Shown here: positions 12 to 24,490 of the stretch, in pieces
Layout: each line of letters opens with the position of its first letter
Numbering within the stretch: position 1 is the first letter of the stretch
From: a virus
Lineage: Duplodnaviria; Caudoviricetes
Strand: one strand, 5' to 3'
DNA length: 64,000 nucleotides
IMG/VR virus record: IMGVR_UViG_3300032319_001025
Span: 32,001 to 96,000 of that record
Program-made: the position numbers and the translations under genes
The notes under the pieces: generated by a model
Databases searched by the model: none
Told to the model about the DNA's origin: nothing
Seen by the model: only the letters and a program-made list of their open reading frames with translations

Positions 12-974
12 ATGGCCATTATACCTACAGACATACTCGTTAAAACAGCACTAGAAGCTGGTTTAAATGACCTTAGAAAGAATAATTTCATTTTAGATGA
101 CGTAATAGCTGGACTAGCTACAGATACGCTGTCTAAAACCGAATACGGCTACAAAGAGATTCATGCCTATAAGCAATGGTTTTTAAACAATAAAATACCA
201 GTTTATTTAGATTTTAGGGTAGATTCGCCCGAAATGCCATGTATTACAATAACAAGCTCACCCAGAGCTGAATTAATACCTAGAACTTCATTAGGTGATA
301 CTTTAGGCGGTCCAGAAGACATAAGCACTGAAAAAGTCTCAATAAATCCTATCAAAGTGTATGAAAATTTTACACCGTTTGAATATGATAAAACTACTGG
401 TAAGGTTACTTTTCCAAGTGGCATAACTACAGAATATGCAGTAGTAGGTCAATTTTTAGTTTCATCTAGAACTGGAAAAGCTTATCAAATACTTGAAATT
501 ATTGATAATTCTACTTTTAAAATTAAAGCAAACGTGAACGAAGATTTTACTGATGCTTATGTAGTTCCGCCAGTATCTGTATGGAATTTACAAAGAGAAG
601 TAACATTTGTATCTGAAACTGTTTATATTGGAGTTCATACTCAGTCAGATCCTGTACAAAATCAATGGCTTCACGATACTATTTGGTATATACTTTTAAG
701 ATGTAAAGAAGTTTATTTTGAAGGAAGAGGATTTGAATTAAGTACCATGCAATCAGATGCCATGTATTTAAATCCAAATTTTAAAGAAACTGATCGTATT
801 TTTAGTAGAAACATAACTCTTTCTGGACAGATTGAAATTAATTTTATTAAATATGCAGCACCAAAATTACAAGACGTTCGTGGTGTCATTAGAATTGCAG
901 ATGGTCCTAAAACTCCACCAGGTGTAAATCCTAAAGATTATTCACCTACCTGGAAAATGGAACAAGACGATTAA
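12..974 (+). CDS. Putative virion neck / tail-completion (tail terminator-like) protein
   Basis: 320-aa ORF upstream of the tail module, with a mixed alpha/beta composition like myovirus neck proteins; no diagnostic motif, so the call rests on position. Confidence 0.4.
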   Translation: MAIIPTDILVKTALEAGLNDLRKNNFILDDVIAGLATDTLSKTEYGYKEIHAYKQWFLNNKIPVYLDFRVDSPEMPCITITSSPRAELIPRTSLGDTLGGPEDISTEKVSINPIKVYENFTPFEYDKTTGKVTFPSGITTEYAVVGQFLVSSRTGKAYQILEIIDNSTFKIKANVNEDFTDAYVVPPVSVWNLQREVTFVSETVYIGVHTQSDPVQNQWLHDTIWYILLRCKEVYFEGRGFELSTMQSDAMYLNPNFKETDRIFSRNITLSGQIEINFIKYAAPKLQDVRGVIRIADGPKTPPGVNPKDYSPTWKMEQDD

Positions 975-984
975 TGGTTTTAAA

Positions 985-3582
985 ATGGACCCAAAAGATA
1001 AAAAAACACCAGTAGCTTCAGCCGTTGTTATTAGGCATAGTGAGTTTCCAGAACTTATATTGCACGGCAAAAGAAGAGACATTAATGAATGGAGTATTCC
1101 AGGTGGGCACGTACATAAACATGAATCTTTAAAAGACGCTGCAGTTAGAGAAACTAAAGAAGAAACTGGTTTGCAATTAGATCCAAACGATTTAGAACAT
1201 ATTGGCACAGAGCACTACAATACAAAAGAAGATAAACACTTAACGGTCCATCTGTTCGTATGTAAAAAACCTTACCATCATGAGAGCATGGATTTTACTG
1301 GTGATAAAGATGAAGAATTTAAAGAATTAAAATTTATTAATCCATTAGAGCACGATGACTTATATCAGCCAAATGGAGAAAATATTGTAACCACCTACCT
1401 TAAAGGCGAGCTTAAAAAACCTGAAATTAGTAAATCAGAAGAATTAGATAAAGGCGTAATGAAAAGGCTTTTTCCGTTTAATCCAAAAAAAGACGTTAAA
1501 ACTGAAGATAAATCAGATTTAAGGCTTTGGCAAACTTATGGTAATTATGGATATAGCGGAGAAACAATTGATGATATTGATGATGTAAAATATGTTAGAG
1601 AAGGTTTAAGCGAAATTAATCAAAATGCTAAAATGCGAGCACTTAATAAATTAACAGGGATTGCAAAAACCAAAATAAATCCTGAAACAAAAGAAAGAGA
1701 ATTCTTATTACACAGAGGAGTGAGTTCTTCAGAGTTTAAAGATTCTACCGATGGAAAGCATGCTTATCATCAAAATAAAACATCTTGGATGCCATTTTCT
1801 GATTTAGCTGAAAAATACAGGGATTCACATTATTCAACTAGTGGCAGGATAGATCGTAAAAAATCAAAAAAAGATAGTGGTAAAGTAATATCCGCTTGGA
1901 TTAGCGAAAAAAACATCCACCATATTCCTAAAATGTACGGAGCAATTCACACTCCTACATCCCATGGTTTTAATGAATATCAAGAAGAAAATGAAATAAT
2001 TGTAAATCCTCACAAATCAGCTTTAGCAACTTCAGAAGAAATAAGAGGAAAAAATGATATCTTGCGCAACAAATTAAAAGATAATTATTTAAAAAATATT
2101 TCAAAACAATTTCAAAAACCCCAAAAACTAGCAGCAACTGAAAAATCAGAACTTAAAAATTTAGAAATTTATCAATTTTTTCACAATATTTCCAATAACT
2201 TAATTAAAGTTGAGGTTAAAGATAAAAATAATTTGCAAGTAGCTGAAGCAAGCTTTAAAATAGAACTAGACAGCCTAATTGTGCCAGAAAGCTTACAGAT
2301 TGACCGTAAACATGATCAAGCAGGCTTGCAAAAAGAAATGTACATTTATGCTGACGAGGTTTTAACTTTAAATAAGCAGGAGTTAGAAAAGATGTCTCAG
2401 CCAGCTTTAAGATTTAAAAAACTAACAAAATTGCCAACAAGACCTGAGCAGGACGTTAAATTAATTAACCCTGAGCCACTTAAGGTGCCTTCACGTACAA
2501 AAGAAGAAAAAGATATAGAAGAACTTTCTGGCGGCCCTAGAACAATATCTAGACAATCCCTAGAAAATAAGAAAATAGCTAATAAAATTTTAATGATGCA
2601 CCCAGAGGCAAGTAAATCACCAAAAGAAAAAAGAGAATCGGAAAGAAAGGCTTTGGAAGCGCATATTGGTGGAGGCGAAGACGTTATTTCACCTGAAGGT
2701 ACATTTACAACATCTGGATATACCTCTGGTTTTGGAGATTTACCAGTAAGTCAGCCTTATGAAGTTAAAAAACCGTGGCCTACATCCGAAGGTAATGTAA
2801 CTCAAGAGCACGAAGCAACTCATCATTTATTAAACCATTTAAGATTCAAATATGGCGAAAATACAAAAAATAGAGTTGTCGATCATCTTTTAAACGTACA
2901 TTTGCATCCAAATGAAAGAGAAGCAATAGAAAAACTTATTAGATCTAAACCTTCATATAGAGATTTACCAGAAGGCGAATTTAATGAAGAGGTACTAACC
3001 CATCTTAGAGATTTATTAGTAAGTAAAAGAAAAAGAGAAGATCATAACTCATTAAAAATGCAACAGCCTAAATATTGGCAACCTATTGATTATAAAAGGC
3101 TTAAATCATCATGGAAACAGTTAACAGGTCATGCCAAAAGAATGACGGAAAAAGACCTAAATAAGCTTATGGGCAAAAATGAAGGCCAAATTGATTTTGA
3201 AAAGCTTTTTAAGGCTAAAAAACTTAAAACCAAGCAATTTAAGCGTTTTTATCTGGATAGAAAAAAAGATCATAGCGGCAACACTGGAAGTGGAATAGTT
3301 GCAGTAGGGGTACAGTTTCCTGGCGGTAAATGTATAGTCAATTGGATGACCGATACACCATCATTTAATTTTTATGATTCTTTGGATGATATTAAAGAAG
3401 TTCACGGGCATGATGGAGATACAGAGATTAACTTCATGGATGATTTTAACAAAACTGAAGAAATGAAAAAGTTTGAAGATATTCATGAGAAATTAGCTTC
3501 TCGGTCTAAATATCTTAGAAAAGATCCTTTGCATAAGTTGCCGTTTTTATTTTTAAATAAAAGATTCATGGGAAAAGATTAG
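985..3582 (+). CDS. Multi-domain polyprotein: Nudix hydrolase + ADP-ribosyltransferase-like + degenerate GNAT + HExxH zincin-like + small conserved phage domain
   Basis: Nudix box GGHVHKHESLKDAAVRETKEETGL; ART R-S-E triad LLHRG / TSW / EENEIIV; GNAT-like QIDRKHDQAGLQKEMYIYAD; EHEATHH; C-terminal RFYLDRKKDHSGNTGSGIVAVG...HGHDGDT module. Linkers ISKSEELDKG, KLAATEKSELK, ELEKMS, LMGKNE, LFKAK, FNKTE. Confidence 0.75.
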   Translation: MDPKDKKTPVASAVVIRHSEFPELILHGKRRDINEWSIPGGHVHKHESLKDAAVRETKEETGLQLDPNDLEHIGTEHYNTKEDKHLTVHLFVCKKPYHHESMDFTGDKDEEFKELKFINPLEHDDLYQPNGENIVTTYLKGELKKPEISKSEELDKGVMKRLFPFNPKKDVKTEDKSDLRLWQTYGNYGYSGETIDDIDDVKYVREGLSEINQNAKMRALNKLTGIAKTKINPETKEREFLLHRGVSSSEFKDSTDGKHAYHQNKTSWMPFSDLAEKYRDSHYSTSGRIDRKKSKKDSGKVISAWISEKNIHHIPKMYGAIHTPTSHGFNEYQEENEIIVNPHKSALATSEEIRGKNDILRNKLKDNYLKNISKQFQKPQKLAATEKSELKNLEIYQFFHNISNNLIKVEVKDKNNLQVAEASFKIELDSLIVPESLQIDRKHDQAGLQKEMYIYADEVLTLNKQELEKMSQPALRFKKLTKLPTRPEQDVKLINPEPLKVPSRTKEEKDIEELSGGPRTISRQSLENKKIANKILMMHPEASKSPKEKRESERKALEAHIGGGEDVISPEGTFTTSGYTSGFGDLPVSQPYEVKKPWPTSEGNVTQEHEATHHLLNHLRFKYGENTKNRVVDHLLNVHLHPNEREAIEKLIRSKPSYRDLPEGEFNEEVLTHLRDLLVSKRKREDHNSLKMQQPKYWQPIDYKRLKSSWKQLTGHAKRMTEKDLNKLMGKNEGQIDFEKLFKAKKLKTKQFKRFYLDRKKDHSGNTGSGIVAVGVQFPGGKCIVNWMTDTPSFNFYDSLDDIKEVHGHDGDTEINFMDDFNKTEEMKKFEDIHEKLASRSKYLRKDPLHKLPFLFLNKRFMGKD

Positions 3583-3590
3583 GTTTTTTT

Positions 3591-6500
3591 ATGCCAAAAA
3601 TTTTACATGGAATTTTTAGCAAGCTGGATAAATACTCCAATGACGTACAAACAAAAGCGGAAAAGTATATAAAATCTCCAGAGTTCAATGAAAAAACCTA
3701 TTTAAACCTTCTATCTGGAAAATATAACGATGATATTGCTAGAATTATAGAGGTTTTACCAAGCGTCAAAAAAAGTAAATACAACACAAAAAGCAATAAC
3801 GATAAAATAATTTCAAATGTTTTAAATTTTAAACAGAAGGATGATGCCGATTTTTTTTGGAAAGCTGGATATATTGAATATTTTTTACGGCACTTAAAAC
3901 ATTCTACAGAATCTGTAAATAAAATTATTAACTTCGTTAAGAATAAAAAAAAAATACCAACAGAGGAAAAAACCAATTTACTCCGATCCCTAAACAAAAG
4001 TTCTGAAATTAAAAAAACAAATATTAAAGATATAATAGATACCGTACCTAATGACCCAACTGGTGCATCTGTTATAAATTTATTTATAAATCACCCATCC
4101 GTAGATTCTAAAATTTTTAACGAAGTATTAAAAAAGTTTGATTTTAACAGTAATCGACTTCCAGGTGGAGTTTTAACTTCTAAATTCTTAACTTCTGAAG
4201 CTGCATTAAAAATTTTAAATGATACTGATACTATAGGTGATTCGAATGAATTAGATAAACTTTTGAGCAAATTACCTAAAAGTGCCAGAAACGATTATAT
4301 ACATTCAAAACTTGGGATTACTGGAGGTTCTAAATCTCCATCGCCAGAGGAATATGAAACTGATTGGTTTCATGGCCCAGAAAGAGATGAAATTACCGCC
4401 AGAACAATTTCTGAATCAAAATACTTAACTCCAGAAGCTATTAATCATATTAAAAAACACGGCGGTTTTGGTGAAAAATATGGATTATTTAGTAATGAAC
4501 ATGTAGATCCAAAACATGCAGCAGAAATGGCAGCAAAATGGGCCAATGATGAAGATGGTTACGAAGAATCTGATTTTAAAGAAAGACTTAAAGAAGATAA
4601 TCAAGATAACGTTTGGGATAATTATTCTGATGATGCAAGAGAAAAAGTTCAAGAAGAATACCCAATTTCTAAATACTTAAGAGATATCGGCGACGATGAA
4701 GTTTCCAGAACTCTTTTTGATAAAGATCATGATGAATGGAAAAAAGATTGGATCAAAGAAAACAAAGATTTGACAGGCCCAAATCCTGATTTTAATCCAG
4801 AAGAACCAGAAAGCGAAGATAATCCAAAAAATATTACATTTAATGAAGATGAATATGATATTAAATATCCAGTAGAAGATCATCCGAATTATAGTGATTA
4901 CGATTCGGAAGCAGAGGAAGCTTTTGAAAACGCAAAAAATCATGCGGATCTTGAACCGTTTTACGATGGTTATGATGAATCAATAAACGAAAACGTTAGC
5001 GATGCTGTTTCTGATTTATTTGATGACGAATTAGATAATTGGACTGAGCACGATCATTTTTTACCAGAACACGTTAGAGATAAATTAAAAGATCCGTTAA
5101 AAGGTAAAGAAAATCCTACAGAAAAAGATCTTGAAGAAGCTATTTATCATCCGTTAAAAATAGTTAGGGACCATGCCGCTAAACACGAAAAATTATCACC
5201 TAGACTTATCAATAAAGTTTTAGAAGAAGGTGACAAAAAAGCAAAAATGTCCGTATTAGAGAATCCTAATATCACATCGCAGCAGTTAATGAATGTAATC
5301 AAAAAAGATGATGATAAGGAAACCGTATCAAAAGCACTTCGGAATTTTAAAATAACCCCAGAGCATGTTCAAGAAGCTATCAATAGGCACAATGAAAATA
5401 GCGAAATAATGAATGCAGCTTTTAAATCCCATGCCGCAAATGATGAACACGTAAAAAACTATTTAAATATAGCTAAAAGTTCTAAAACACCTTACTATAA
5501 TGATCTAAGCCCAATTGTTAATTCTAAATTCAATTTGTCCCCAGAAGATGTTAACTTTATTTATAATAAATTTAATGAGCAGGGCAGGTATAATGATCTG
5601 TCTAAGCTGGTTTCGCATCATAATTCAACAAAAGATATTATCGAACAATCATTAAAACATCATGACTATAAAGTAAAAGAATCAGCAAAAAAAATGATGG
5701 ACAGGAAGTTCCCACAATCCGCAGATCCTGTAAATGTAAAAATGGGAACTCATCCTTTAAGGGTATTGAGAGATATAGTGTCTGAACAAGGTGGTACTAC
5801 CACAAAAGGCAAATTAAAAAATTTAGGCATAAATCCAGATAAATTTAATACACTGTTTAAGCCTAATGGCACAATTTCATCAGACGATATACAAAAAGTA
5901 ATTGATTCTGCTCCGAGTAAAAATTATAATACTTCTCATGATAAATGGACTGGAGCGCAAAGGCACTCAGCAGACCCATCTGATGTGTTTCAGCTTAATT
6001 ACACTCAAGAACATTTAAATGAAATGCAAAAAGAAGGTGTTCTAGACACTTTCCAAAAAATACATGAAGTTGCAATGAGATCTGGGCATCCAGTAAAAAA
6101 TAATACTATTGGATGGGTAAGATATACAGGAAGTCCAGAAGAAGGATTTCATATTGACGAAATTCAATCAGATTTAGGTAAGTCTATTATTAATCAAACT
6201 ATCCAACAGGCTAAAAACGCTGTACAAAACAACCAAATGACCACAGAACAAGCTGAAACAGCCGTAGAAAATGCTAAAAATAAATTTCCAGAAGACCATT
6301 TAAAGAAAATAAATAAGATACTCTTTGAAGATAAACATCCAAGTGAGATAATACACGAAGCTTTTAAAGAATATATGAGAGGTAAAGGTTTTGAAAAAAC
6401 CCCAATACATATATGGCAGCCAGAATCTAAAGCCCCAATATCAGGCATGCGTCAATCTACTAAAATATCCGCAAGTGATGCTAAAACTGCTTTAAACTCT

Positions 6501-7292
6501 GCTAAAAAAGATAGAATGGATGATGAAGCGAAAGCTTTAATTTCTTGGGGGCAAAAAAACAAATTAGCCCCAGCATCTTTTAAAGATATTACGCATGAGC
6601 ATTTAGATCAAATTGCTGAAAAATATTCAGATTTTGCAAATGCACACAGAGAGCAGCATAATTCTGATCCAGAATTACCAGTTCAGTTGCCCGTACACAT
6701 GATTGAAGGTTATGGTAAAATTCCTAAAGCTATGGGTTATAAAGAATCTTTTTATGGTAAGCTGCCTACTCAAAGTAATGAGGAATATAAAATTAAACCA
6801 GAAATAAATCAATCTGCAGCCCCGACATACGAAGATGTAATTAGAAAGAACGAAGGACAACCAACTATTTTACATCATTATAGTAGACACCAAGATCTAA
6901 AAGAACTAGACCCTAAAAAAGAGGGTATGGGTGTTAGAGGAGATCATACAAAAAGATTTTTACCATATCAAATAAAAAACTTTCCACATGTAACATTTTA
7001 TTACATAAATGATACTCCAGAGCAAATAGTTAAAGATGCAGCTAAGTCAAAATACACCGTAAAACTAGAGCCACATCAAAAACTATATAACTTGCATACA
7101 GATCCTGAAGGTTTAGGAAGGCAGGCGATTGCAGAAAACCAAGGTGCATGGAATTATGAAAAAATCTTTAATAAAATTAAAAATGCTGGATACCATGGTA
7201 TAACTGCAATAGGCTCTGAACATCCAATTATTGGAAATACCGTAATGCTATTTCATCCTCAAGCGATACATGAGGAGAAAAAATTAGTATGA
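3591..7292 (+). CDS. Large polyvalent protein: helical HEAT/LRV-like repeats, acidic tract, EIQSD domain, C-terminal ART-like module
   Basis: Repeats such as HAAKHEKLSPRLINKVL / SVLENPNITSQQLMNVI / KALRNFKITPEHVQEAI; GWVRY...FHIDEIQSD motif; after the VIRKNE linker a domain with LHHYS...FYY...KIKNAGYHGI that resembles polyvalent-protein ART modules. Confidence 0.55.
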   Translation: MPKILHGIFSKLDKYSNDVQTKAEKYIKSPEFNEKTYLNLLSGKYNDDIARIIEVLPSVKKSKYNTKSNNDKIISNVLNFKQKDDADFFWKAGYIEYFLRHLKHSTESVNKIINFVKNKKKIPTEEKTNLLRSLNKSSEIKKTNIKDIIDTVPNDPTGASVINLFINHPSVDSKIFNEVLKKFDFNSNRLPGGVLTSKFLTSEAALKILNDTDTIGDSNELDKLLSKLPKSARNDYIHSKLGITGGSKSPSPEEYETDWFHGPERDEITARTISESKYLTPEAINHIKKHGGFGEKYGLFSNEHVDPKHAAEMAAKWANDEDGYEESDFKERLKEDNQDNVWDNYSDDAREKVQEEYPISKYLRDIGDDEVSRTLFDKDHDEWKKDWIKENKDLTGPNPDFNPEEPESEDNPKNITFNEDEYDIKYPVEDHPNYSDYDSEAEEAFENAKNHADLEPFYDGYDESINENVSDAVSDLFDDELDNWTEHDHFLPEHVRDKLKDPLKGKENPTEKDLEEAIYHPLKIVRDHAAKHEKLSPRLINKVLEEGDKKAKMSVLENPNITSQQLMNVIKKDDDKETVSKALRNFKITPEHVQEAINRHNENSEIMNAAFKSHAANDEHVKNYLNIAKSSKTPYYNDLSPIVNSKFNLSPEDVNFIYNKFNEQGRYNDLSKLVSHHNSTKDIIEQSLKHHDYKVKESAKKMMDRKFPQSADPVNVKMGTHPLRVLRDIVSEQGGTTTKGKLKNLGINPDKFNTLFKPNGTISSDDIQKVIDSAPSKNYNTSHDKWTGAQRHSADPSDVFQLNYTQEHLNEMQKEGVLDTFQKIHEVAMRSGHPVKNNTIGWVRYTGSPEEGFHIDEIQSDLGKSIINQTIQQAKNAVQNNQMTTEQAETAVENAKNKFPEDHLKKINKILFEDKHPSEIIHEAFKEYMRGKGFEKTPIHIWQPESKAPISGMRQSTKISASDAKTALNSAKKDRMDDEAKALISWGQKNKLAPASFKDITHEHLDQIAEKYSDFANAHREQHNSDPELPVQLPVHMIEGYGKIPKAMGYKESFYGKLPTQSNEEYKIKPEINQSAAPTYEDVIRKNEGQPTILHHYSRHQDLKELDPKKEGMGVRGDHTKRFLPYQIKNFPHVTFYYINDTPEQIVKDAAKSKYTVKLEPHQKLYNLHTDPEGLGRQAIAENQGAWNYEKIFNKIKNAGYHGITAIGSEHPIIGNTVMLFHPQAIHEEKKLV

Positions 7293-8353
7293 AAAATTTG
7301 ATTAAACAGCCGCATTTGATTTTTTCAATGGAAAATCCTAGATATCAGGTAACCCAAAAAGATATAAATCATGGACAAGCTTTAAATATGCTTAAAGATT
7401 TAGGCGAGAATACTATTGATTCTAATGGAAAATATGGATCGGAAGAGCCATCAATTATAGTTTCTAACCCTAAAAACGTTAAAGATATAATCAAGCTTGC
7501 TAGAGATGCTGGACAAGAATCTATTATTTACTCAGATGGAAAAAGACATAAAATGATATATTTAAACGGTCCCCAAGCTGGACAAACGGTTAATGGGGAA
7601 GGTACGGTTTTCTACAATCAGAAACCAAATGATAACTACACACATTTTAAAGATCAAAACGGTAAAGATATTTATTTTACTCATAATTTTGATTTTGGTA
7701 AATCAGAGAAATTGCAAAAAACTTCTAAAATTAATTTGAATCCAGAACATGGGAAAATTATCGCAAATGCATACGAAAAAATGAAACATGATCCAAATGA
7801 TCCTAAAGTTAAAGAGGCGTATGGTGCGCTAATTAATGAAACAAAAAAACAATTTAAAGATATGTTAAATTCTGGGTTTAAATTTTCTAAAATTAAACCC
7901 GAACAGTCCAATCCATATGGCACATCAAAAGATGTACATGAAGATATAGAAAAAAATAAACATTTATGGTTTTTTCCAACAGAACAGGGATTTGGTCAAG
8001 AGGGACAAACTAAAAATCATCCAATGCTAGAATCAACTGAATTTCAATTTGAAGGTAAACCTTTATTAGCTAATGATCTGTTTAGAATAGTTCACGATTA
8101 TCGCGGTCATTATTTAGGAGGTAAAAGCTCGTTCGGACCTAAAGGAGAGCATCAAGCTTATCTTACACATAAAAAAGATTTTAGCCCTTTAGCTCAAAAA
8201 GCTTTGGCTACAGAAACTATGGGTCAAAATAATTGGGTAAATTTTGGACCATATGGAGAAAAAAACAGAAAAAACCCCGAAAACACTACATACGCAGAAC
8301 AAAAATCGGGGCTTCTTCCTGACGAAATAATAAATGGGAGATGGCACGAATGA
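7289..8353 (+). CDS. Two-module protein: N-terminal T3-type SAM lyase-like domain + C-terminal NDLFRxVHDxxGH domain
   Basis: LIFSMEN...NHGQALNML...GKYGSEEPSIIV...LARDAGQESIIY...MIYLNG...NYT matches the motif order of T3 SAMase (GCY..EE..V, Q-D-C-V-L). Linker FGKSEKLQKTS, then FRIVHDYRGH...GEHQAY...ETMGQN, a possible metal-binding domain. Confidence 0.6.
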   Translation: MKNLIKQPHLIFSMENPRYQVTQKDINHGQALNMLKDLGENTIDSNGKYGSEEPSIIVSNPKNVKDIIKLARDAGQESIIYSDGKRHKMIYLNGPQAGQTVNGEGTVFYNQKPNDNYTHFKDQNGKDIYFTHNFDFGKSEKLQKTSKINLNPEHGKIIANAYEKMKHDPNDPKVKEAYGALINETKKQFKDMLNSGFKFSKIKPEQSNPYGTSKDVHEDIEKNKHLWFFPTEQGFGQEGQTKNHPMLESTEFQFEGKPLLANDLFRIVHDYRGHYLGGKSSFGPKGEHQAYLTHKKDFSPLAQKALATETMGQNNWVNFGPYGEKNRKNPENTTYAEQKSGLLPDEIINGRWHE

Positions 8354-9783
8354 ATCATAAACATTACAGAAGGATACTGCTCGACTCTTTTGATGAAAAT
8401 TCTTTGCAAAAAGGTTCAAAAGGCGATTGGCAAAAAGAAGGGTACAAAATACATCATGTTGGAGATCCTAAAAGTAGTTTTGACGTTATTGCAGTTTCCC
8501 CAAAAGGAGAAACCATCGGTAAGGTAAATATTGGAAGATACGAAACAAAAACAAAACCAAATCTAGTGGCTTCTAACCCAATTGTACATAAAGATCACAG
8601 ACGTAAAGGTATCGCATCTGCTATGTATCAATATGCAGAAAAAGTATCTGGTGGAGTAATGAAACCAGATGTAGGATTAACTTTATCGGCAAAACAAATG
8701 TGGGCTAAACCAAATAGACCTTTTGGCGGTAAACGTAAATATTTTCAACATTTAATATCTAAATCAGAATTAAAGAAGGCACCATTTATTCATGAACACA
8801 ATGCTTTTGCAGCAAGTAATATAGGTCCTTATATCGGAGAAGATTCAGAATTAGAATCTGTTACCAATCATAAAGGTTACAAGGTTTATAAATATAAAGA
8901 CGGCGATTATCATTATTTTGCTATACATAAAGATAACGATCCCAAAAAAGAAGTACTTTCATCAGCTACCGTATCTTCTTATTACGATCCTGAAGATCCA
9001 AATTTTGACGAAAATGAAGGGTTGCCTTATATTGAACATGCAGCAACGTTATCAGAACACCAAGGTAAAGGCATGGGAACAGCCATTCATGAGGCTGCAA
9101 CAAAACATTTTGGAACATTATTAAGCAGTACCGCGCTTTCTCCAGGAAGCGACGCAACTTGGAAAAAGATGCGTGCAAATAAAAACATAAAATTAAAAAT
9201 TGGAAGAGGTGAATCAAGTCCCTATATAGCTAAATGGATTAAAAAGCCCAAAATTAACAAAACAGAAGATTTAAATCAACTAGCTAAAGGTTTTGAAGAA
9301 TTATTTGGTTTTTTGGCTAAAGCAAAAAAGAATATTATATATATAGCTACCGATGGAGATAATATCGGTGCTTCAGTTGAAAGGGCCGCTCTATCTAACG
9401 ATATTAAAGAAATTAAAAAACAAGATAAAATTATTAAAAGAGGTAATCAAACCGTAAGAAAGTGGATTAAAAAACGCAAAGGTTCAATTTATATTGACGG
9501 TGGCGATGATATTTCTTTTACTATTCATAAAAAATATTTAGATGAAATCGAAGAACTAAGGAATAAATATCATGAGGCTACTGGATATACAATCACAGTT
9601 GGAATAGGTGATAGTATATCAGAAGCCGCTCATGCCATGGTTTATGGTAAATTAAAAGGCAAAAACCAAGTAAATAGATGGACATCAGAAATAGAATCTA
9701 TTATTTCTCAGCATGATAAAAAACCTGAATCCGCAGAAGAAAAATATCAAAAAGAAGGTCTTTTGGTTCCCAAAAAGATATAA
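8341..9783 (+). CDS. Polyprotein: two GNAT acetyltransferase domains + C-terminal mCpol (minimal CRISPR polymerase / GGDEF-like nucleotide cyclase)
   Basis: GNAT motif A twice (VHKDHRRKGIASAMY; EHQGKGMGTAIH). mCpol pattern YIATDGDNIG...IDGGDD...TITVGIG...EA..A...GKLKGKN. The real start may be the ATG at 8350. Confidence 0.8.
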   Translation: MARMNHKHYRRILLDSFDENSLQKGSKGDWQKEGYKIHHVGDPKSSFDVIAVSPKGETIGKVNIGRYETKTKPNLVASNPIVHKDHRRKGIASAMYQYAEKVSGGVMKPDVGLTLSAKQMWAKPNRPFGGKRKYFQHLISKSELKKAPFIHEHNAFAASNIGPYIGEDSELESVTNHKGYKVYKYKDGDYHYFAIHKDNDPKKEVLSSATVSSYYDPEDPNFDENEGLPYIEHAATLSEHQGKGMGTAIHEAATKHFGTLLSSTALSPGSDATWKKMRANKNIKLKIGRGESSPYIAKWIKKPKINKTEDLNQLAKGFEELFGFLAKAKKNIIYIATDGDNIGASVERAALSNDIKEIKKQDKIIKRGNQTVRKWIKKRKGSIYIDGGDDISFTIHKKYLDEIEELRNKYHEATGYTITVGIGDSISEAAHAMVYGKLKGKNQVNRWTSEIESIISQHDKKPESAEEKYQKEGLLVPKKI

Positions 9784-9823
9784 CTAATTAAATATATTCA
9801 ATTATTTGCGTCTTTTTGTTATG

Positions 9824-9832
9824 ACTTAATCT
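9824..9832 (+). promoter_or_regulatory. Candidate late promoter motif ACTTAATCT
   Basis: Intergenic, 34 nt before the ATG at 9867. Confidence 0.65.
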
Positions 9833-9866
9833 TTTAAGTAGGCATTATTAAAAGAGTTTTAATAAA

Positions 9867-11018
9867 ATGGCAAAACTAACAAAAACAGATTATTTTGATG
9901 CTTTGTGGAATTTGTATCAAGAAAACAAAAAAAAGGCATCTATGCCACCACACGTTGGCGGCGAAGAACAGAAATATGTTGTTCATGTTGGTGGTCAAGC
10001 AATAACCGAACCCAAAACATACAAGCAAATTATTCAAGACCATGGCGACATTAAAAGATTAGAAGCATCTGGAGCAAGAGTTCTCCCCCATGTGCCAAAA
10101 ACAACACCAAAACCGCCACCATTGCCTAAACAAACAAAGACAATGGGCAAAAACCAAGATATTAAAATACCTAAAAAAGAATTTATTAAAGAGCACAAGC
10201 GCTTAATTGATGTTCTCGAGTCTCCTTCCCATAAAGATGACGTACAGGAAGCTAAAAAACAAAGAAAAGAATTAAAAGAAATCAACAAATCAGATAAATA
10301 CTTTCAAAATTTAAAAAAGGGCTACGCACAAAAAAAACTTCCAGTAGATCCAAATAAAGAATCTCAAATGAATGCCATGTTAATAGATAAATGGCAAAAT
10401 GAACAATATACGCCAACTAGAGCATTAATTAAACCATTAACTGGAAATTTAAGGCAAAGAGCGTTAAATAGACTAGCTGGTACAACAAAAGTCAGAAAAG
10501 CAAAAGACGGCAAAAGAGAGTTTTTATTGTATCGAGGTGTTAGCGATTCTGAAAAAGATAGCGCATTAGATAACAACGTTTTAAATTATCCAGAAAACCA
10601 ATACACTTCATGGACACCACATCAGGGAATAGCTGGTAGATTTGCAAATAGCAGAATGGGTCATATTATTGGCGCATGGATTCATGAAAATGATATACAA
10701 CATTACCCTAAAATGGTTGGAAATGTATATGAAAGGCATAAAGGAAAGCCTATTAAATCCGCAAATGATTATGCTGGAGAAGATGAAATTATAGTTAGAC
10801 ATACTAGACCGCATGAAGGGCACGTAACGCATTCATTTTCTACGGATTCAAATTTTATAAAATATAACACTAAAAGTCCGATTAAAAACGAAATTAAACC
10901 AGAAAGATTGGTTGCATCAGAAGAAAAAAAGAACAACGAAGACTTCTTAAAAGAAGAAATATTGGATTTTTCCGATGAAGAAACCCTAGAGCACTCTACT
11001 AACAAGTGGAGTAAATAA
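9867..11018 (+). CDS. Polyprotein with ADP-ribosyltransferase-like domain
   Basis: REFLLYRGVS / YTSWTP / GAWIHE / GEDEIIV, clearly paralogous to the ART domain of 985..3582. Linkers INKSDKYFQNLKKG and RLVASE. Confidence 0.7.
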   Translation: MAKLTKTDYFDALWNLYQENKKKASMPPHVGGEEQKYVVHVGGQAITEPKTYKQIIQDHGDIKRLEASGARVLPHVPKTTPKPPPLPKQTKTMGKNQDIKIPKKEFIKEHKRLIDVLESPSHKDDVQEAKKQRKELKEINKSDKYFQNLKKGYAQKKLPVDPNKESQMNAMLIDKWQNEQYTPTRALIKPLTGNLRQRALNRLAGTTKVRKAKDGKREFLLYRGVSDSEKDSALDNNVLNYPENQYTSWTPHQGIAGRFANSRMGHIIGAWIHENDIQHYPKMVGNVYERHKGKPIKSANDYAGEDEIIVRHTRPHEGHVTHSFSTDSNFIKYNTKSPIKNEIKPERLVASEEKKNNEDFLKEEILDFSDEETLEHSTNKWSK

Positions 11019-13774
11019 TGCCTGTTTTAACTCCAGAACAACACGAAAAGGAAATGCACTTAGCAGCTAGTTCTGGCGACTGGGATAAAGCTATAAAACA
11101 CGCAAAATCCCAACCTAAAAATTGGTCGGCTTTTGATAAATTACCCCAATATGAAATCCCCCCAGAAGCTTTTGAAAAAGTAATTAATTCGGTTCCAAAA
11201 AATGATAGGGCTAATTTTTATTTTGAGCTTGCAAGCAACCTTCATCCAAATTTAACTCATGATCAATTAGATTTTTTAGGCAGCAAAACTGGAAATGACA
11301 TTTACGCACAAGATTCAATAAAAAACCACCCTAATTGGAATCCTAAAGAATCAAAGAAAAATTTAGGTGAAAAGTCAGCATCTGATTTTTGGTTAAGCTA
11401 CGAAAGAAGAGTAGAGCCGCATCATTTTGCTACAATTAAGTCTATATTTTCTGGCAAACCAGAAGAAATAACAGATCATAGAGGTAAAACTGGAAACAGC
11501 CATTTAGGAAGTATTCAGAATGGAAGGCTATACGAAAAAGAAAGTAATATAGCCGCAAACGGACCTAAATTTTATGGCGATCAATTTTTATCAAACCTTA
11601 AAGACGTACATCCATATTTATTAGATCATGCAAAAAAAGTTCAAGACGCTATAATGCAGGATGAAAATATAGAAAAAAGAATTATAAACGGAAAACCTCA
11701 CATTAAACTTTATAGAGGTGTTGGAGGGTCTTACGCTAAAAGAATAGCAAAATCTTCAAAATATGATCCAAAAAATCATTCAGTTGAAAACAAAAAGTTT
11801 AAAATAAAATCAGCCCCCTTTAGTTCATGGTCTACTGAAAAAGAAGTAGCGGATAATTTTGCTAAATCCAGAACTAACATTACTGGAACTATAGGTCCAG
11901 CAAAACCAGGAGAATCTATAACACTATCTTCGTGGATTCCAGTAGAAAACATTTTACATTCGGGCTTTCATAGAATTCATACAGGTCAAGAACATGCACA
12001 TCCACATGAATCAGAAATAATAGTATCTCATCCAACAGGATACATGAATTTAAATTCAAAAGATTTACACCTCGTTAATACACTTAAAGACCCCTATTCA
12101 AGCGAAATTGAAAAAGTTTCAACAAGAGGCATTATCCCACAAAAACTGGCTGCATCAGAAAAAGAATATTTTAATGATTTGTTAGAAAAAAACCTCAGAT
12201 CTAAAATTGCTGCAGCAGCTCTAGGAGCATCTTTATTATCTACGCCAGCAAACATAAAAGAAATAAAACGACCATTAAATCAAATTCAAGAAAAACAAAC
12301 TCAATTACATCCAGATTTAGTTGATATTTCAGCAATTGAGAGTAATTACGGAAAAAACAAACAACATAAAAAAGTTTTAACTGGCGTTAACATGGGACAT
12401 AAAGCCGCTGGAGCTACTGGCTTAATGCCATTAACCATTAAAGAAACTATTAAAAGAAATAAAAACTTATCCGATAGATACCCACAAACCATTTCAATGG
12501 ATCACGATCAGTTAACTGATTTTATTAATAAAAACCCAAACATTGAAAACAAAATAGCTAATGCACATTATAAAAAACTTTTAAAGGTTTTTAGTAATAA
12601 CAAAAATAAAGCGATTTTTGCCTGGAGGAACGGCATTTCCGCAGCCAAAAACGCTTCACAAGAAGAAATAAATAACAATCCCTATGTAATAGCAGTAAAT
12701 AAAGCAAAAATAAACATAAATAAATCAGATAAATACTTTAAAAGTCTTAAAAAAACAAATACTAAGATTAATCAACCAAATAAAATAAATAAAAAATTTA
12801 TAGCTGTTATTAATAAAGGCACGTTATCAGATGGAAAATATAATCCTTCCCCTTTATATTATGTGGGCGATGGCAATCACATGACAGAACCATATAAAGC
12901 TATGGCTTTTGATTCAATAGAGCAAGGTAGAAAAGAAATTGAAAATTCTTGGAAAAAAAGATCTCAAAATGAAGAATATAAAAGAACGGCACCACATCCT
13001 TTTGACATTAGCTTTATAGAAGATCCAAGGCCAGGAAAATGGAACGAAGATGAAAGTTATTATGAAGATGAAAGCGGTAATCCAATTTTAGACAGTAAAG
13101 GCAATGTCATACACGCAAAAATGCCAAAACTAGAATTTAACGAACCTAATTCTATTATGGTGCATGTGGAAGACCCTTCAGATCAAAAAGAGCTAAAGCA
13201 AAAACAAAAATTAGCTTCAAGCTTAAAAAGCCAGGGCAAAAAAGTAGATTTAGTATATCCCAAAATGCCAGAACAAAAGGTAAAAATACAATCATACAAA
13301 GAAGCAATGAAAGAAATAGCAGAGCAGGAAGCAAAACAAAAATTAAAAGATTACGGATATGATGATGAAGGAGTAAAACAAGCTATTCAAACATCAGGAG
13401 AAAAAACAAACGTTATTCCAGAAAAATTAGCAGCATCTGAGCTTTATTTTAAAAATCTTAAAAAATCAAATGAAAACAAACAATTATTAAATAAATGGAA
13501 AAAATATTTTAAATCAAAAATCAAAAAAACTGACGGCATTACAACTACTACAATGCCAAGAGGACAAAGCCCTGGTCAAACAGGCCCATCATTAAATGGA
13601 ACATCAATTAAAGAACAGCCCAGAGGCCCGATTGGAACAATTAGGCCGTCAAAGGATTTACAGCAGATTTCACAGTCTTTTACGGGCAATTTGGGACAAC
13701 CTGGTATATCAGCAGCTGCATCAAATCTTAGAAGATTTTTGGGTAAATCTAAAGGTTTAAATAAAAAACAATAA
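11018..13774 (+). CDS. Polyprotein: ADP-ribosyltransferase-like + lytic transglycosylase (SLT/lysozyme-like) + unknown module
   Basis: KLYRGVG / FSSWST / HESEIIV triad. SLT motifs ISAIESNYG...AAGATGLMP...AW.NG. Linkers KLAASEKEYFNDLLEKN, INKSDKYFKSLKKT, KLAASELYFKNLKKS. Confidence 0.7.
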   Translation: MPVLTPEQHEKEMHLAASSGDWDKAIKHAKSQPKNWSAFDKLPQYEIPPEAFEKVINSVPKNDRANFYFELASNLHPNLTHDQLDFLGSKTGNDIYAQDSIKNHPNWNPKESKKNLGEKSASDFWLSYERRVEPHHFATIKSIFSGKPEEITDHRGKTGNSHLGSIQNGRLYEKESNIAANGPKFYGDQFLSNLKDVHPYLLDHAKKVQDAIMQDENIEKRIINGKPHIKLYRGVGGSYAKRIAKSSKYDPKNHSVENKKFKIKSAPFSSWSTEKEVADNFAKSRTNITGTIGPAKPGESITLSSWIPVENILHSGFHRIHTGQEHAHPHESEIIVSHPTGYMNLNSKDLHLVNTLKDPYSSEIEKVSTRGIIPQKLAASEKEYFNDLLEKNLRSKIAAAALGASLLSTPANIKEIKRPLNQIQEKQTQLHPDLVDISAIESNYGKNKQHKKVLTGVNMGHKAAGATGLMPLTIKETIKRNKNLSDRYPQTISMDHDQLTDFINKNPNIENKIANAHYKKLLKVFSNNKNKAIFAWRNGISAAKNASQEEINNNPYVIAVNKAKININKSDKYFKSLKKTNTKINQPNKINKKFIAVINKGTLSDGKYNPSPLYYVGDGNHMTEPYKAMAFDSIEQGRKEIENSWKKRSQNEEYKRTAPHPFDISFIEDPRPGKWNEDESYYEDESGNPILDSKGNVIHAKMPKLEFNEPNSIMVHVEDPSDQKELKQKQKLASSLKSQGKKVDLVYPKMPEQKVKIQSYKEAMKEIAEQEAKQKLKDYGYDDEGVKQAIQTSGEKTNVIPEKLAASELYFKNLKKSNENKQLLNKWKKYFKSKIKKTDGITTTTMPRGQSPGQTGPSLNGTSIKEQPRGPIGTIRPSKDLQQISQSFTGNLGQPGISAAASNLRRFLGKSKGLNKKQ

Positions 13775-13836
13775 TAAAATATATAACTAGTTGAATTAAT
13801 TAAATAAAATTAATCAAAAAAGCATTATTTTATATT

Positions 13837-13845
13837 ACTTAATCT
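13837..13845 (+). promoter_or_regulatory. Candidate late promoter motif ACTTAATCT
   Basis: Intergenic, before the ATG at 13863. Confidence 0.65.
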
Positions 13846-13862
13846 ATCAAATAGAGGTAATT

Positions 13863-15845
13863 ATGTCTAAGTCCTTATTAGAACAGGCTCAGGAATTATT
13901 AAAAAGCATTGAAAACAATCCAGAAGCATTAAAAGCTTTTCAAGAGCTTGTAAAAGCACGCGCAGAAGAATCAAAGCACATTGAAATGGAAATGTCACCA
14001 GACCAAGAAAAGAAAAAACGCATTGATGAATTGTCCAAAAAAATTAAAGCTTGCATGGAAAAAATGCAAAAAGAATCAATGGATAAAGACGACAAGCCAC
14101 ATTTACCAGGAACTCCAGAAGATAAAGCTCATGATGTTGTCGAAGAAGGCGAAAGTGTTAAAGAAGCCATTCACGGATTAAAAGATAAAAGTGAAGATTC
14201 TAAAAAAGAAATGCTTTCACATTTAAGATCTTTAAAAGATAAATCCCAGCTTAGAAGCCCAGAAAACAGGGAAGCTGGTAAAGAACCTCATGAAAAAGCT
14301 GAAACTGGACACGAAAAAGGTGTTCATCAAGCAGATTACAGCACAACTTATATAAAAGATAATAAAATTCAGCACGGTATTTCAACTGCTGGAATTAGAG
14401 CAAGAGAAGCCTCTAAACCCCGTTCTTTTAAAGAATATGAAGAATCACCTAAAGCAGCAAAGGCGGGTCACGAAAGAGTATTAGAAGAAATTAAACAACA
14501 GCCTAAACCCAACCTTCCTAAAACTGAAAAAGCTGAAACAGAAAAATCTGTACACGGAGTTCCAGGAAAAAATAGGCCGTTACATTCACGTGGCATACAC
14601 GAAACTGTAAGTCAAAGCAGCTCAGAGTTTGGCGGCGAAGCAAAAGAAAAAAGCCTTGCTGGATTAAAAGTAAGACGTGGAGATACTGCAGGAGCAAAGA
14701 AGGCACATAAAGAAATTGTTTCCGAGCAGAAAAAAATGCCTGTTGCAAAATTACCAAAAGCTGAAACAGAAAAAAATGAAACTTATTACAGAAATTTAGT
14801 TAAAAATACTTTAGAAAAACAACTAATGTCTCCACCGTTCGGAATGAGCGAAATGGAAAAAGAAGAAGACCCAAGAGAAATGGTTGAATCAAGTTTAATG
14901 GCAATTCACAGAAAAGCTAATTATTTGCAAAAATTGCTTCATGAAGTTTGCGAATGTAAAGAAGTGCCAGCTTGGGTTCAAGATAAGCTTTCTTCTGCTA
15001 AAACGCATATGACCGATGTAATGGATTTTATTGCATCTCAAGCAGGAAAAGGTAGTCATCATGAAGAGCAAGAAATGCACCCAGCCGAAACTGCAGAAAT
15101 TGTAGTAACTAAATCTGAATTAGAAAAAGCCAAAATTGACGAAGGTAAACAACTAGGAAGCAAAATAGCAGCAAGACAAGAAAGAAATATTAGGGACGTA
15201 ATTACAACTAAAACCCCTTCTGGACAAAAAACAAGGACAGCAAGATCTTCTGCAAGAAGAGAAAAAGAACTAGAAGAAGGTAAAAAGCCAGAATCTCTCT
15301 TATCTGCTTTAAAAGAGCATGCGGAAAGAAGGAAAGGCGAAAAAATTGTAGGAAAACCTAAAACACTAGAAAATATTAGCGGTAGAGACATTAGAGGCAA
15401 GTCTGCTGAACAAAGAGCTGGCGTACACATGCATTCTGGTTCAATGGCAGGTAAAGAAATGCCAATTGGAGTTTCTGCACCAGTTTTTGCAGATAAAAAA
15501 GGTAAAGCTTATCCTATTGGTGGATTATTCGGTGAAAATAAATATTCTTCTAAAGTTAGACATGAAGAAGTAATGGAAGGCTTAAAAAACATTAAGCCAA
15601 GTTTACCTAAGTCCGAAATGAAAAAAGAACAGCTCGAGCCAGCTCCGAAACCACAAAGCAAACCTAAAATGATTGCACCGCCTGCTAGTGGTGCTGGTGC
15701 AAGCGATGGGGGTCATGGCAACTGGAAAGGCGACGGAAAAGGCCCGAAAATGAAAAAACCAGTAAAATTTAACTATAAAATTGCAAAAGCTGAAAAAGTA
15801 CAATATTATTCAAATTTAGTTAAATCTTTATTAGATAAAAAGTAA
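13863..15845 (+). CDS. Charged, repeat-containing putative head-internal / scaffold-like protein
   Basis: K/E-rich; three internal repeats GxH...H.E(V/I)..E.K..P..LPK(T/A/S)E; a module with VPAWVQDKLS; termini paralogous to 23768..24490. Confidence 0.5.
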   Translation: MSKSLLEQAQELLKSIENNPEALKAFQELVKARAEESKHIEMEMSPDQEKKKRIDELSKKIKACMEKMQKESMDKDDKPHLPGTPEDKAHDVVEEGESVKEAIHGLKDKSEDSKKEMLSHLRSLKDKSQLRSPENREAGKEPHEKAETGHEKGVHQADYSTTYIKDNKIQHGISTAGIRAREASKPRSFKEYEESPKAAKAGHERVLEEIKQQPKPNLPKTEKAETEKSVHGVPGKNRPLHSRGIHETVSQSSSEFGGEAKEKSLAGLKVRRGDTAGAKKAHKEIVSEQKKMPVAKLPKAETEKNETYYRNLVKNTLEKQLMSPPFGMSEMEKEEDPREMVESSLMAIHRKANYLQKLLHEVCECKEVPAWVQDKLSSAKTHMTDVMDFIASQAGKGSHHEEQEMHPAETAEIVVTKSELEKAKIDEGKQLGSKIAARQERNIRDVITTKTPSGQKTRTARSSARREKELEEGKKPESLLSALKEHAERRKGEKIVGKPKTLENISGRDIRGKSAEQRAGVHMHSGSMAGKEMPIGVSAPVFADKKGKAYPIGGLFGENKYSSKVRHEEVMEGLKNIKPSLPKSEMKKEQLEPAPKPQSKPKMIAPPASGAGASDGGHGNWKGDGKGPKMKKPVKFNYKIAKAEKVQYYSNLVKSLLDKK

Positions 15846-23767: not shown

Positions 23768-24490
23768 ATGTCTAAATCATTGATAGAACAAGCAAAAGAA
23801 CTTTTAAAGCAACTAGAGCAAGACCCGTCTGCCTTGAATAAATTTGAAAAAGACGCTTATTTTCAAGAATTAAAAAAAGCTAAAATTTACGATTTTAAAA
23901 CCAAAAAAAAGATAGCTGAATTACCAACTAATTCAACTTCAAAAGAAGCGCAGCCGATTGTTCGAGAAGGCGAAAAAGGTATAACAAACAGAAAACATTT
24001 AAGAGAGAAATATTCTCCAGATATCATGCCAGAAAAACAAAATGTTCCAGGCGGAGAAGAAGTGACTAAAGCAGAAAAATCTAAAAAACCTTTTCACGGA
24101 TATAATCCTAAAAAACACGCTAAAACTGGCGGGCTAAACGATAAATACAGGAAGAAATTAAATAGAGAAACTGGATCAAAATTAAAAAGACCCAGCAAAG
24201 ATAAAAAAAATTCGAGACATAAATCTTTTTGCGCCAGAATGAAAGGCGTTAAAGGACCTACTTCTAAAGAAGGGAAGCTTACCCCTAAAGGAGCGGCGCT
24301 TAAACGCTGGAATTGCTCTAAAAATGAACACACTGACGAAAAAATGTGCAAAAAAGATAGATGCTGGAAAGGTTATGAACCAACACCAGGCAAAAAACCT
24401 TATGAAAAAGGTTCTTGTAGGCCGATTAAAAAATCGCATGAATATTATTACAATTTAGTTAAATCTGTTTTGGAAAAAAACTATAATTAG
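23768..24490 (+). CDS. Putative head-cargo polyprotein (basic SFCARM module + CWKGY module); termini paralogous to 13863..15845
   Basis: MSKSLIEQAKELLKQLE; GGLN...RHKSFCARMKG...ALKRWNC; CWKGYEPTPGKKPYEKGSC; YYYNLVKSVLEK. Confidence 0.55.
   Translation: MSKSLIEQAKELLKQLEQDPSALNKFEKDAYFQELKKAKIYDFKTKKKIAELPTNSTSKEAQPIVREGEKGITNRKHLREKYSPDIMPEKQNVPGGEEVTKAEKSKKPFHGYNPKKHAKTGGLNDKYRKKLNRETGSKLKRPSKDKKNSRHKSFCARMKGVKGPTSKEGKLTPKGAALKRWNCSKNEHTDEKMCKKDRCWKGYEPTPGKKPYEKGSCRPIKKSHEYYYNLVKSVLEKNYN

Follow-up and report, generated by a model that had tools for sequence, protein, structure and literature searches.

The window considered here is a stretch of 64,000 nucleotides (positions 32,001 to 96,000 of the IMG/VR virus record IMGVR_UViG_3300032319_001025, a member of the Caudoviricetes) and sits within one 144,013-bp contig with a GC content of 33.7%. 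Positions 985-15845 of the window hold a block of seven open reading frames (ORF1 to ORF7) separated by gaps of -13 to +88 bases, which, together with a further frame downstream (ORF8), encode chains of enzyme modules that are probably carried in the capsid; these frames and their linkers, like the neck-like and sheath genes on either side of the block, lie on the + strand. Directly 5' of this cargo block is a conserved structural-module gene (12..974), whose neck-like product has a weak phrog_1000 match, 93% identity to its counterpart in the related IMG/VR contig L007 and 33% identity to the product of the syntenic gene of Myxococcus phage Mx1. On the 3' side of ORF7, an 80-aa ORF is followed by the tail sheath gene (16150..18960; phrog_279, E 1.8e-23), the downstream border of the block. 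The cargo genes are a tight same-strand pack between a conserved structural gene and the sheath, a virion or late gene setting. The head-assembly genes are found at the opposite end of the contig, outside the window, and encode the large terminase subunit (TerL), the portal, a stand-alone SPP1-gp7-like protein without cargo (L003:12879-13718), a 300-aa prohead protease (L003:13774-14676; phrog_1028, E 1.8e-9), an acidic scaffold-like protein (L003:15614-16561) and the major capsid protein (MCP; L003:16564-17973; phrog_752). Here L002 and L003 denote other parts of the phage's own genome, while L007, L010 and similar labels denote loci of relatives. The nearest named phage is Mx1 (capsid identity 56%), and Herelleviridae such as SP-10 are distant relatives. 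A megablast search of the block against 50,697 phage records gave no match, and a search with the neck-like protein returned only close relatives (L007, viral contigs; and one metagenome contig, L008/L009).

A first-pass annotation, made from the letters alone, read the seven genes and the frame at 23768-24490 as strings of unrelated domains, and the frames and module chains were found to be as it described. Two or more unrelated effector or enzymatic domains share a chain in ORF1 (Nudix, an ADP-ribosyltransferase (ART) and more), in ORF3 (an S-adenosylmethionine (SAM)-lyase fold and a second domain) and in ORF4 (two GNATs and mCpol). ORF1 (985..3582; 865 aa), with matches in both Pfam and PHROGs, runs from a Nudix domain (residues 1-147; PF00293, 61.5 bits) through ART-1 (158-381), a small module (392-458), a module with an HExxH motif that matched no Pfam or PHROG family (465-727) and a phrog_7499 module (734-820) to a tail. 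ORF2 (3591..7292; 1233 aa), for which no Pfam or PHROG family was matched, has a 1083-aa N-part, one linker and a 145-aa C-module that is shuffled among relatives. ORF3 (7289..8353; 354 aa) joins a SAM-lyase-like module (1-134) to a C-module (152-330; phrog_3170). ORF4 (8341..9783; 480 aa) contains GNAT-1 (34.4 bits), a weak GNAT-2 (E 0.0037, under the Pfam cut-off) and mCpol (70.1 bits). ORF5 (9867..11018; 383 aa) has an N-module, a disordered Pro-rich stretch and ART-2, and ORF6 (11018..13774; 918 aa) an N-module, ART-3, a hydrophobic segment, a candidate SLT-like module, a further module and a tail. The hydrophobic segment of ORF6, rich in Ala and Leu (residues 393-413; 12194-12256), directly follows a linker and precedes the SLT-like module; as a membrane or signal-like element it could serve to anchor a cell-wall enzyme. 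ORF7 (13863..15845; 660 aa), the conserved gene directly 5' of the sheath, is of low complexity, rich in Lys and Glu and without match in Pfam or PHROGs; its position corresponds to that of a 560-aa Mx1 protein that is encoded just before the sheath and bears a SAM-lyase-like module, and its middle part is absent from L007. ORF8 (23768..24490; 240 aa) has N- and C-terminal peptides in common with ORF7, and also a DUF6321 module and a site at 24062-24076.

The N-module of ORF3 matched PF23780 at E 1.3e-4 and 22.4 bits, under the 28-bit cut-off. An AlphaFold model of the protein, built from 14 homologues, has two confident domains, and the top Foldseek match in the PDB was the T3 SAM lyase (8bb1_E; E 6.8e-4, prob 1.00), ahead of chains from 7ock, a complex of MAT with SAMH. 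On this model the module is a T3-type SAM-lyase fold, with the corresponding activity predicted. The ART modules of ORF1, ORF5 and ORF6 are paralogues that retain the R-S-E residues in all three copies; an alignment of 26 sequences shows no variation at R223, W249, E305 and E307 and has S248 in at least 90% of them, and the catalytic motif is E-x-E. No sequence-level Pfam or PHROG match was obtained for the ARTs, and the PDB sequence profiles gave one match, at E 0.91, to the Listeria ART Lmo0066, and nothing with a deeper profile. The ORF5 model, in which the ART core (190-320) has pLDDT >90, returned ART-superfamily structures as all 50 of its 50 best matches with VIA-align, including Tpt1, diphtheria toxin, Rhs ARTs, ExoS and iota toxin; the Z-scores of 5.0-6.8 are moderate, yet uniform, and the Foldseek E-values are weak, 8.7e-3 at best. 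From the domain list of the first-pass annotation, the Nudix, the three R-S-E ARTs, two GNATs (one of them weak), the SAM-lyase fold and mCpol stand, while the SLT domain, the HExxH zincin, a fourth ART proposed for the C-terminus of ORF2 and, within the block, a third GNAT went unconfirmed. The candidate SLT-like module has an E-S motif conserved in seven homologues and matched neither Pfam nor PHROGs nor the PDB profiles. A third clear GNAT is encoded at L002:4670-5206, beyond the window.

Related short peptides lie at the module boundaries. In these, a hydrophobic residue and a variable position precede Lys; the next residue is Ser or, less frequently, Thr, Ala, Asn or Gly, and Glu comes last. 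In ORF1, residues 148-157 (1426..1455) read I-S-K-S-E then L-D-K-G between Nudix and ART-1, and residues 382-391 (2128..2157) read L-A-A-T-E-K-S-E after ART-1; a candidate site follows at residues 729-733 (3169..3183; M-G-K-N-E, with K-K-S-E as its L007 equivalent) and another site at 821-825 (3445..3459; F-N-K-T-E). The single ORF2 linker is at residues 1084-1088 (6840..6854; I-R-K-N-E) and that of ORF3 at 136-146 (7694..7726; F-G-K-S-E...). ORF4 has linkers at residues 138-148 (8752..8784; L-I-S-K-S-E...) and, 5' of mCpol, at 305-317 (9253..9291; I-N-K-T-E...). ORF5 carries I-N-K-S-D followed by Y-F-x-N-L-K-K-G at residues 139-152 (10281..10322) and a variant, L-V-A-S-E, after ART-2 at 348-352 (10908..10922). 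The linkers of ORF6 are at residues 376-392 (12143..12193; K-L-A-A-S-E, then Y-F-x-D-L), 567-580 (12716..12757; I-N-K-S-D, then Y-F-K-S-L-K-K) and 803-817 (13424..13468; K-L-A-A-S-E-L-Y-F...), and the five ORF7 sites are at 14514-14528, 14751-14765, 15105-15119, 15603-15617 and 15780-15794. The core common to the linker strings that had been listed at first reading holds up, as does the set of residues proposed to follow Lys (S/T/A/G/N), which is the set seen in scaffold sites; ELEKMS, SLQKGS, FLAKAK and LLEKN are weak on their own.

It had been foreseen that a Lys-rich proteome could produce such peptides by chance, so occurrences of the core hydrophobic-x-K-[S/T]-E (h-x-K-[ST]-E) were compared with within-protein shuffles that preserve the composition of each protein. 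The core occurs 9 times in the cargo proteins against 1.5 expected (z 5.8; 6-fold), 5 times against 0.4 in the portal, gp7-like protein, protease, scaffold and MCP taken together (z 7.1; 12-fold), and 3 times against 0.5 in the products of the seven genes that precede the block. Over the other 35,436 residues of the proteome it is at chance level (8 against 7.2; z 0.3), and the Lys-rich background therefore does not explain the motif. An extension behind the core, Y-F-x-N-L, is found 11 times in the cargo proteins against 0.5 expected and, within the genome, only there. As a general capsid-targeting tag this putative helix was rejected: the wider polyprotein set has 23 copies against 18.3 expected, related loci show no enrichment, and the extension follows sites in this lineage only.

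The linker is also found in ART proteins well beyond this genome. A profile of the ART module searched against 1.84 billion representatives (E up to 0.001) retrieved 436 proteins, mostly of 600-2900 residues and some with up to four ART copies. Among the best 149 of the 436, K-S-E occurs 244 times against 68.5 expected (z 21), and outside the ART core motifs no tripeptide is more over-represented. The ten ART polyproteins whose clusters were looked up are all metagenomic, several of them on contigs of 148-162 kb. The ART module itself starts with a conserved peptide outside the catalytic core, [ED]-L-x-K-G-[AS]-x-x-R-x-x-P-F-N, which is usually preceded by K-S-E or L-A-A-S-E and might serve as a docking element or as a second cut site (K then G).

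The motif is also enriched in the head proteins of relatives. Eighty IMG/VR loci around capsid homologues (GC 31-66%) were fetched, and the scaffold homologues at 71 of them contain 302 core sites against 9.3 expected (32-fold), with 4-13 sites in each scaffold of the form h-x-K-[SATNG]-[ED] and Ser by far the commonest residue after Lys; the motif is identical in kind across all 71. Protease homologues have 70 sites against 8.1 expected (9-fold), and TerL homologues 0 against 2.0. At the second position ahead of K, 89% of scaffold, 76% of protease and 71% of polyprotein sites have a hydrophobic residue. In this phage the scaffold has four sites, and the prohead protease, which the first-pass annotation had expected elsewhere in the genome and which is encoded at L003:13774-14676, has two. 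No Pfam family was reached by this protease; BLASTP aligned it to the head maturation protease of SP-10 (E 7e-13, 31% identity), and it is a relative of the Herelleviridae and HK97-type proteases. In Mx1, sites are present in the portal (2) and scaffold (4) and also in a 1479-aa 'NUDIX' and a 619-aa 'kinase' protein. As the linker peptide also fills the scaffold and the protease, comparison of these sequences suggests that the enzymes probably enter the head and are separated by cleavage inside it.

Physical fusions point the same way. In 52 relatives the protease domain (about residues 1-165) precedes sites at about 170-200, behind which come variable modules that match those of the window, namely GNAT, DUF6321-like (in at least seven relatives), the ORF3 C-module, HExxH (L033 and L034) and mCpol/cyclase, plus a kinase-like module as in Mx1. 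In L010, whose capsid is 95% identical, a whole GNAT sits between the two protease sites that enclose a 13-aa spacer in this phage. Many relatives (L027, L028, L032, L033, L040, L042-L045, L063, L066, L075 and others) encode Nudix separately, in an ORF of some 130 aa adjoining or overlapping the end of the protease polyprotein gene, while here it heads ORF1. Since the prohead is where its protease acts, the protease fusions locate the repertoire of modules in the head, in agreement with the packaging that had been proposed for the cargo; for the free-standing chains of the window, entry into the prohead would follow by extension.

Comparison with L007 indicates that the linkers are also where the modules are exchanged, as had been supposed. 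This contig keeps the sheath gene at 80% DNA identity and the neck-like protein as stated above, and its cargo block is rearranged. All eight ends of collinear DNA that fall inside the block (8/8) are on linkers: a block ends at 1443 in the first ORF1 linker and resumes at 2136 in the second, blocks start at 6852 (ORF2), 9267 (ORF4, 5' of mCpol), 10289 (ORF5) and 12162 (ORF6), a junction lies at 7708 (ORF3), and the remaining end is at 10898. L007 has the SAM-lyase-like module attached to mCpol with K-S-E as the junction, matching the ORF4 linker at residues 305-317, and the ORF2 C-module is fused behind ORF1 at K-T-E, directly after the site at residues 821-825. Alignments of the window proteins with all fetched relatives gave 1047 internal ends of high-scoring segment pairs (HSPs), of which 376 are no more than 8 aa from a site, where the null distribution has a mean of 94.7 and a maximum of 125; the ends cluster at residues 1080-1090 of ORF2, and 85 are at residues 145-149 of ORF5.

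Alternatively, these proteins could be classical polyvalent proteins in which the peptide is a flexible, recombination-tolerant joint, spread by duplication or gene conversion and never cut. In favour of this reading, some polyvalent proteins, such as the N4 virion RNA polymerase (vRNAP), are packaged unprocessed (PMC5512222), the Y-F-x-N-L extension is lineage-specific and looks copied within the genome, and the ART paralogues carry their flanks along. It leaves unexplained the 32-fold excess of the core in scaffolds and its 9-fold excess behind the protease domain, across a GC range of 31-66%. It also leaves unexplained K138 of ORF3, the sole conserved residue in a variable junction, which is kept in at least 90% of the 14 homologues with differing downstream modules. 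We consider this alternative unlikely.

The major capsid protein indicates which bond would be cut. Its N-terminus reads L-[VMI]-K-[TA]-L-E-A-G, with K invariant in the 47 homologues put in register and the same string in the other listed ones, while 4 of the 47 have Thr at the position of the later Glu. The C-part of the protease repeats the peptide of the capsid N-arm (A-G-x-x-N-A-A-P-S ... G-S-A-L ... E-D) together with the preceding Lys site, and the copy in this phage has Thr at that Glu position. This repeat was seen in three distant phages, at L003:13774-14676 (this phage), L006:5003-8722 (Mx1) and L090:3506-4249 (SP-10), and the protease may dock in the shell by mimicking the capsid N-arm. 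With the capsid profile, matches were obtained to SPO1 Gp6.1 (9vel) and to the capsid protein of phi812 type, which has been deposited in two lengths, 463 residues (5lii_P) and 439 residues (9row_B); the first residue of the latter is the Ser next to the 5lii_P Lys homologous to K12 of this phage, on its C-terminal side. The K/S cleavage of Herelleviridae capsids named at first reading was not found stated in the literature searched, and this comparison of PDB chains stands in for it. In HK97, gp4 cuts gp5 at Lys103/Ser104. With the invariant capsid Lys, the capsid peptide repeated in the protease and the start of 9row_B, this favours cutting after Lys with a hydrophobic residue at P3, as had been claimed from the linkers.

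The same protease could in principle cut the linkers after the Glu of K-S-E, in the manner of the T4 and phiKZ proteases (S/A/G-x-E in the phiKZ-like enzyme). In linker and scaffold sites the conservation of Glu comes close to that of Lys, and the variants with Ala for Lys (L-A-A-S-E) keep S-E. Under this reading, however, the invariance of the capsid K and the replacement of the later Glu by Thr, in the capsid homologues and in the protease copy alike, would be unexpected, the hydrophobic residue would no longer be at P3, which it occupies only if K is P1, and the mature phi812-type chain would not start right after the homologous Lys. The scaffold sites of SP-10, which are h-x-K-S without Glu, also argue for Lys. 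Cleavage after Glu is thus improbable.

The location of the genes allows a different objection, that the products are not head cargo but non-virion late enzymes or cargo associated with the tail or neck. The genes are between the neck-like gene and the sheath, ORF7 is conserved directly 5' of the sheath, and no targeting signal was identified. Against this, Mx1 and many relatives have the same modules beside the capsid gene or fused to the prohead protease, an enzyme that works only inside the prohead, and a site of action outside the head appears very improbable. Least probable of all is cutting by another enzyme, such as the HExxH module of ORF1 or a host Lys-specific protease, before packaging or after injection, for although ORF1 has an HExxH motif and zincin-like peptidases are a hub domain of polyvalent proteins with a processing role proposed by Iyer et al. 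(PMC5512222), neither family nor fold was confirmed for the HExxH module, which behaves as a further cargo module fused to the prohead protease in L033 and L034, and the motif saturates scaffolds, the canonical substrates of prohead proteases, at loci where no HExxH module was seen.

The reading we prefer is that the enzyme chains are capsid cargo, predicted to be loaded into the prohead and cut at the linkers by the prohead protease, and we place its probability at about 0.7. It is supported by four independent comparative lines, namely the sites in scaffold and protease, the protease fusions, the breakpoints at linkers and the capsid Lys. We infer, beyond these, the cutting of the bond, the entry of the free-standing polyproteins into the prohead, ejection, an anti-defence role and the targets. 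In the proposed mechanism, independent enzyme modules would be made as 'beads on a string', with each linker serving as a recognition site of the phage's own prohead protease. The polyproteins would be co-assembled into the prohead and would then be cut after Lys by the protease responsible for scaffold degradation and capsid trimming. The freed small enzymes (Nudix, ARTs, GNATs, SAM-lyase-like, mCpol and others) would remain in the head and would most likely be delivered with the DNA. Since every module would be bracketed by the same site, modules could be inserted, deleted or swapped without loss of folding or processing, which would make the block hypervariable.

Several observations weigh against this reading. 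The polyproteins of the window are not fused to the protease, and no targeting peptide common to them was found. Residues 1-1083 of ORF2 hold no site. Linkers in which Ala replaces Lys (L-A-A-S-E, L-V-A-S-E), of which there are several, may be uncut or cut elsewhere. In the capsid it is Leu, not Glu, that follows K-T/A, so the cut rule would be looser than the linker consensus. The HSP ends come from many homologues and are mutually dependent, not separate observations. The expectation that linkers fall in disordered segments between domains was borne out in the model of ORF3, where residues 137-150, a coil between two confident domains, are the sole long stretch with pLDDT <50; in ORF5 the linker is modelled within a long helix, with a dip in pLDDT to 53.

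The closest concept is that of polyvalent proteins, which were defined by Iyer et al. (2017; PMC5512222) with predicted virion delivery and processing by zincin peptidases. As in those proteins, unrelated effector domains share one chain (ART, GNAT, GGDEF/mCpol-type cyclase and, as candidates in this phage, peptidoglycan enzymes and HExxH), the genes are among virion genes, delivery with the DNA is predicted and domains are shuffled combinatorially. However, processing there was predicted mainly through in-chain zincin peptidases and here through a cleavage-site linker shared with the scaffold, and assemblin-like peptidases there are rare and always C-terminal, whereas in relatives of this phage the protease is N-terminal to the cargo. 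Linkers were not described in that study, in which the word 'linker' occurs 0 times, and Alt-type ARTs were stated not to occur in genuine polyvalent proteins (PMC5512222). ARTs and Nudix proteins were later argued to be often packaged in the head in myoviruses (Iyer et al., 2022). The defining new feature, as judged from sequence comparison, is the putative cleavage-site linker shared with the scaffold, and no paper was found describing site-bracketed enzyme polyproteins for a Lys-specific prohead protease.

Ejected proteins of T4 (the internal proteins (IPs) and Alt) and of SPN3US/phiKZ are matured by the prohead protease, after Glu and by another protease lineage (PMC9026906, PMC10052503), so the analogy drawn with these phages at first reading is sound in function and fails for the bond and the protease family. 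In T4 the head-packaged IPI-III and Alt, an R-S-E ART among them, are cut by gp21 at a short motif with a hydrophobic P3 and injected with the DNA. T4 differs in that one N-terminal capsid-targeting peptide is removed from single-domain proteins at L/I-x-E by a protease of another family, whereas in this phage h-x-K-S/T-E sites are repeated internally in multi-module chains and no N-terminal targeting peptide of the T4 type was seen. The phiKZ-like phages (SPN3US gp245) have many ejected head proteins matured at a consensus common to capsid and scaffold-like proteins (PMC10052503, PMC7411985), but they are jumbo phages with a T4-like protease that mostly removes propeptides and does not release strings of enzyme modules. 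Among HK97 and the Herelleviridae (phi812, SPO1, SP-10), the protease (SP-10) and capsid (SPO1 Gp6.1, phi812) are homologous, the K-then-S/A site is at the same place in the capsid N-terminus and the SP-10 protease contains the capsid-arm repeat; the substrates known there, in contrast, are only capsid, scaffold, portal and protease, with no enzyme-cargo polyproteins described. Fusions to MuF (SPP1 gp7) likewise bring effector domains, including ARTs, into the head on a head protein, but through a MuF-domain anchor and without release by cleavage as a feature, whereas the gp7-like gene here stands alone.

If correct, the preferred reading would provide a concrete maturation mechanism for polyvalent proteins, in which one protease and one short site serve scaffold, capsid and all cargo modules, and would explain the strong mosaicism of cargo genes. 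Many orphan modules, and giant metagenomic proteins by the hundred, would gain a first context, that of virion cargo. It predicts Nudix, SAM-lyase, ART, GNAT and mCpol activities in the cell before any gene expression, which bears on the pre-empting of signalling-based defences. The site-bracketed design, including the GNAT inside the protease of the near-identical phage, would be a blueprint for loading chosen proteins into capsids, and Mx1 is cultivable, making the idea directly testable. A wider and more tentative proposal, which we hold to be possible though doubtful, concerns the whole Mx1-like clade, with >1,500 capsid homologues, genomes of about 135-175 kb and GC of 31-66%. In such a 'cargo code', any domain bracketed by hydrophobic-x-K/S-E would be loaded, freed by the maturation protease, itself one carrier, and injected, yielding a rapidly reshuffled, ready-made cocktail of counter-defence enzymes; Nudix and SAM lyase might remove signals and cofactors, ARTs and GNATs modify host proteins, and mCpol act as a cyclase. 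Such a code would be a natural and portable route for loading foreign proteins into capsids.

Other features were noted near the block. Directly 3' of the sheath gene, within the tail module, is a 475-aa HNH/homing-endonuclease-like ORF (19053-20480; phrog_3339, E 4.8e-72), and directly 5' of ORF8 a 277-aa protein (22883-23716) has an N-terminal J-domain signature, in which a K-K-Y helix precedes H-P-D. Upstream of the window, a 733-aa protein (L002:5353-7554; genome 25353-27554) consists in part of about 13 tandem 26-residue repeats, N-L-H-P-E-x-Q-x-Q-L-A-Q-S-K-D-x-x-V-L-x-N-L-A, and several diverged copies of this repeat gene are present in L007. A 426-aa conserved structural-module protein (L002:9855-11135; genome 29855-31135) resembles by eye a 468-aa Mx1 protein, and both have an acidic middle part with sites. 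The N-terminus of the Mx1 protein is similar to the mCpol module of ORF4 (BLASTP 3.3e-6).

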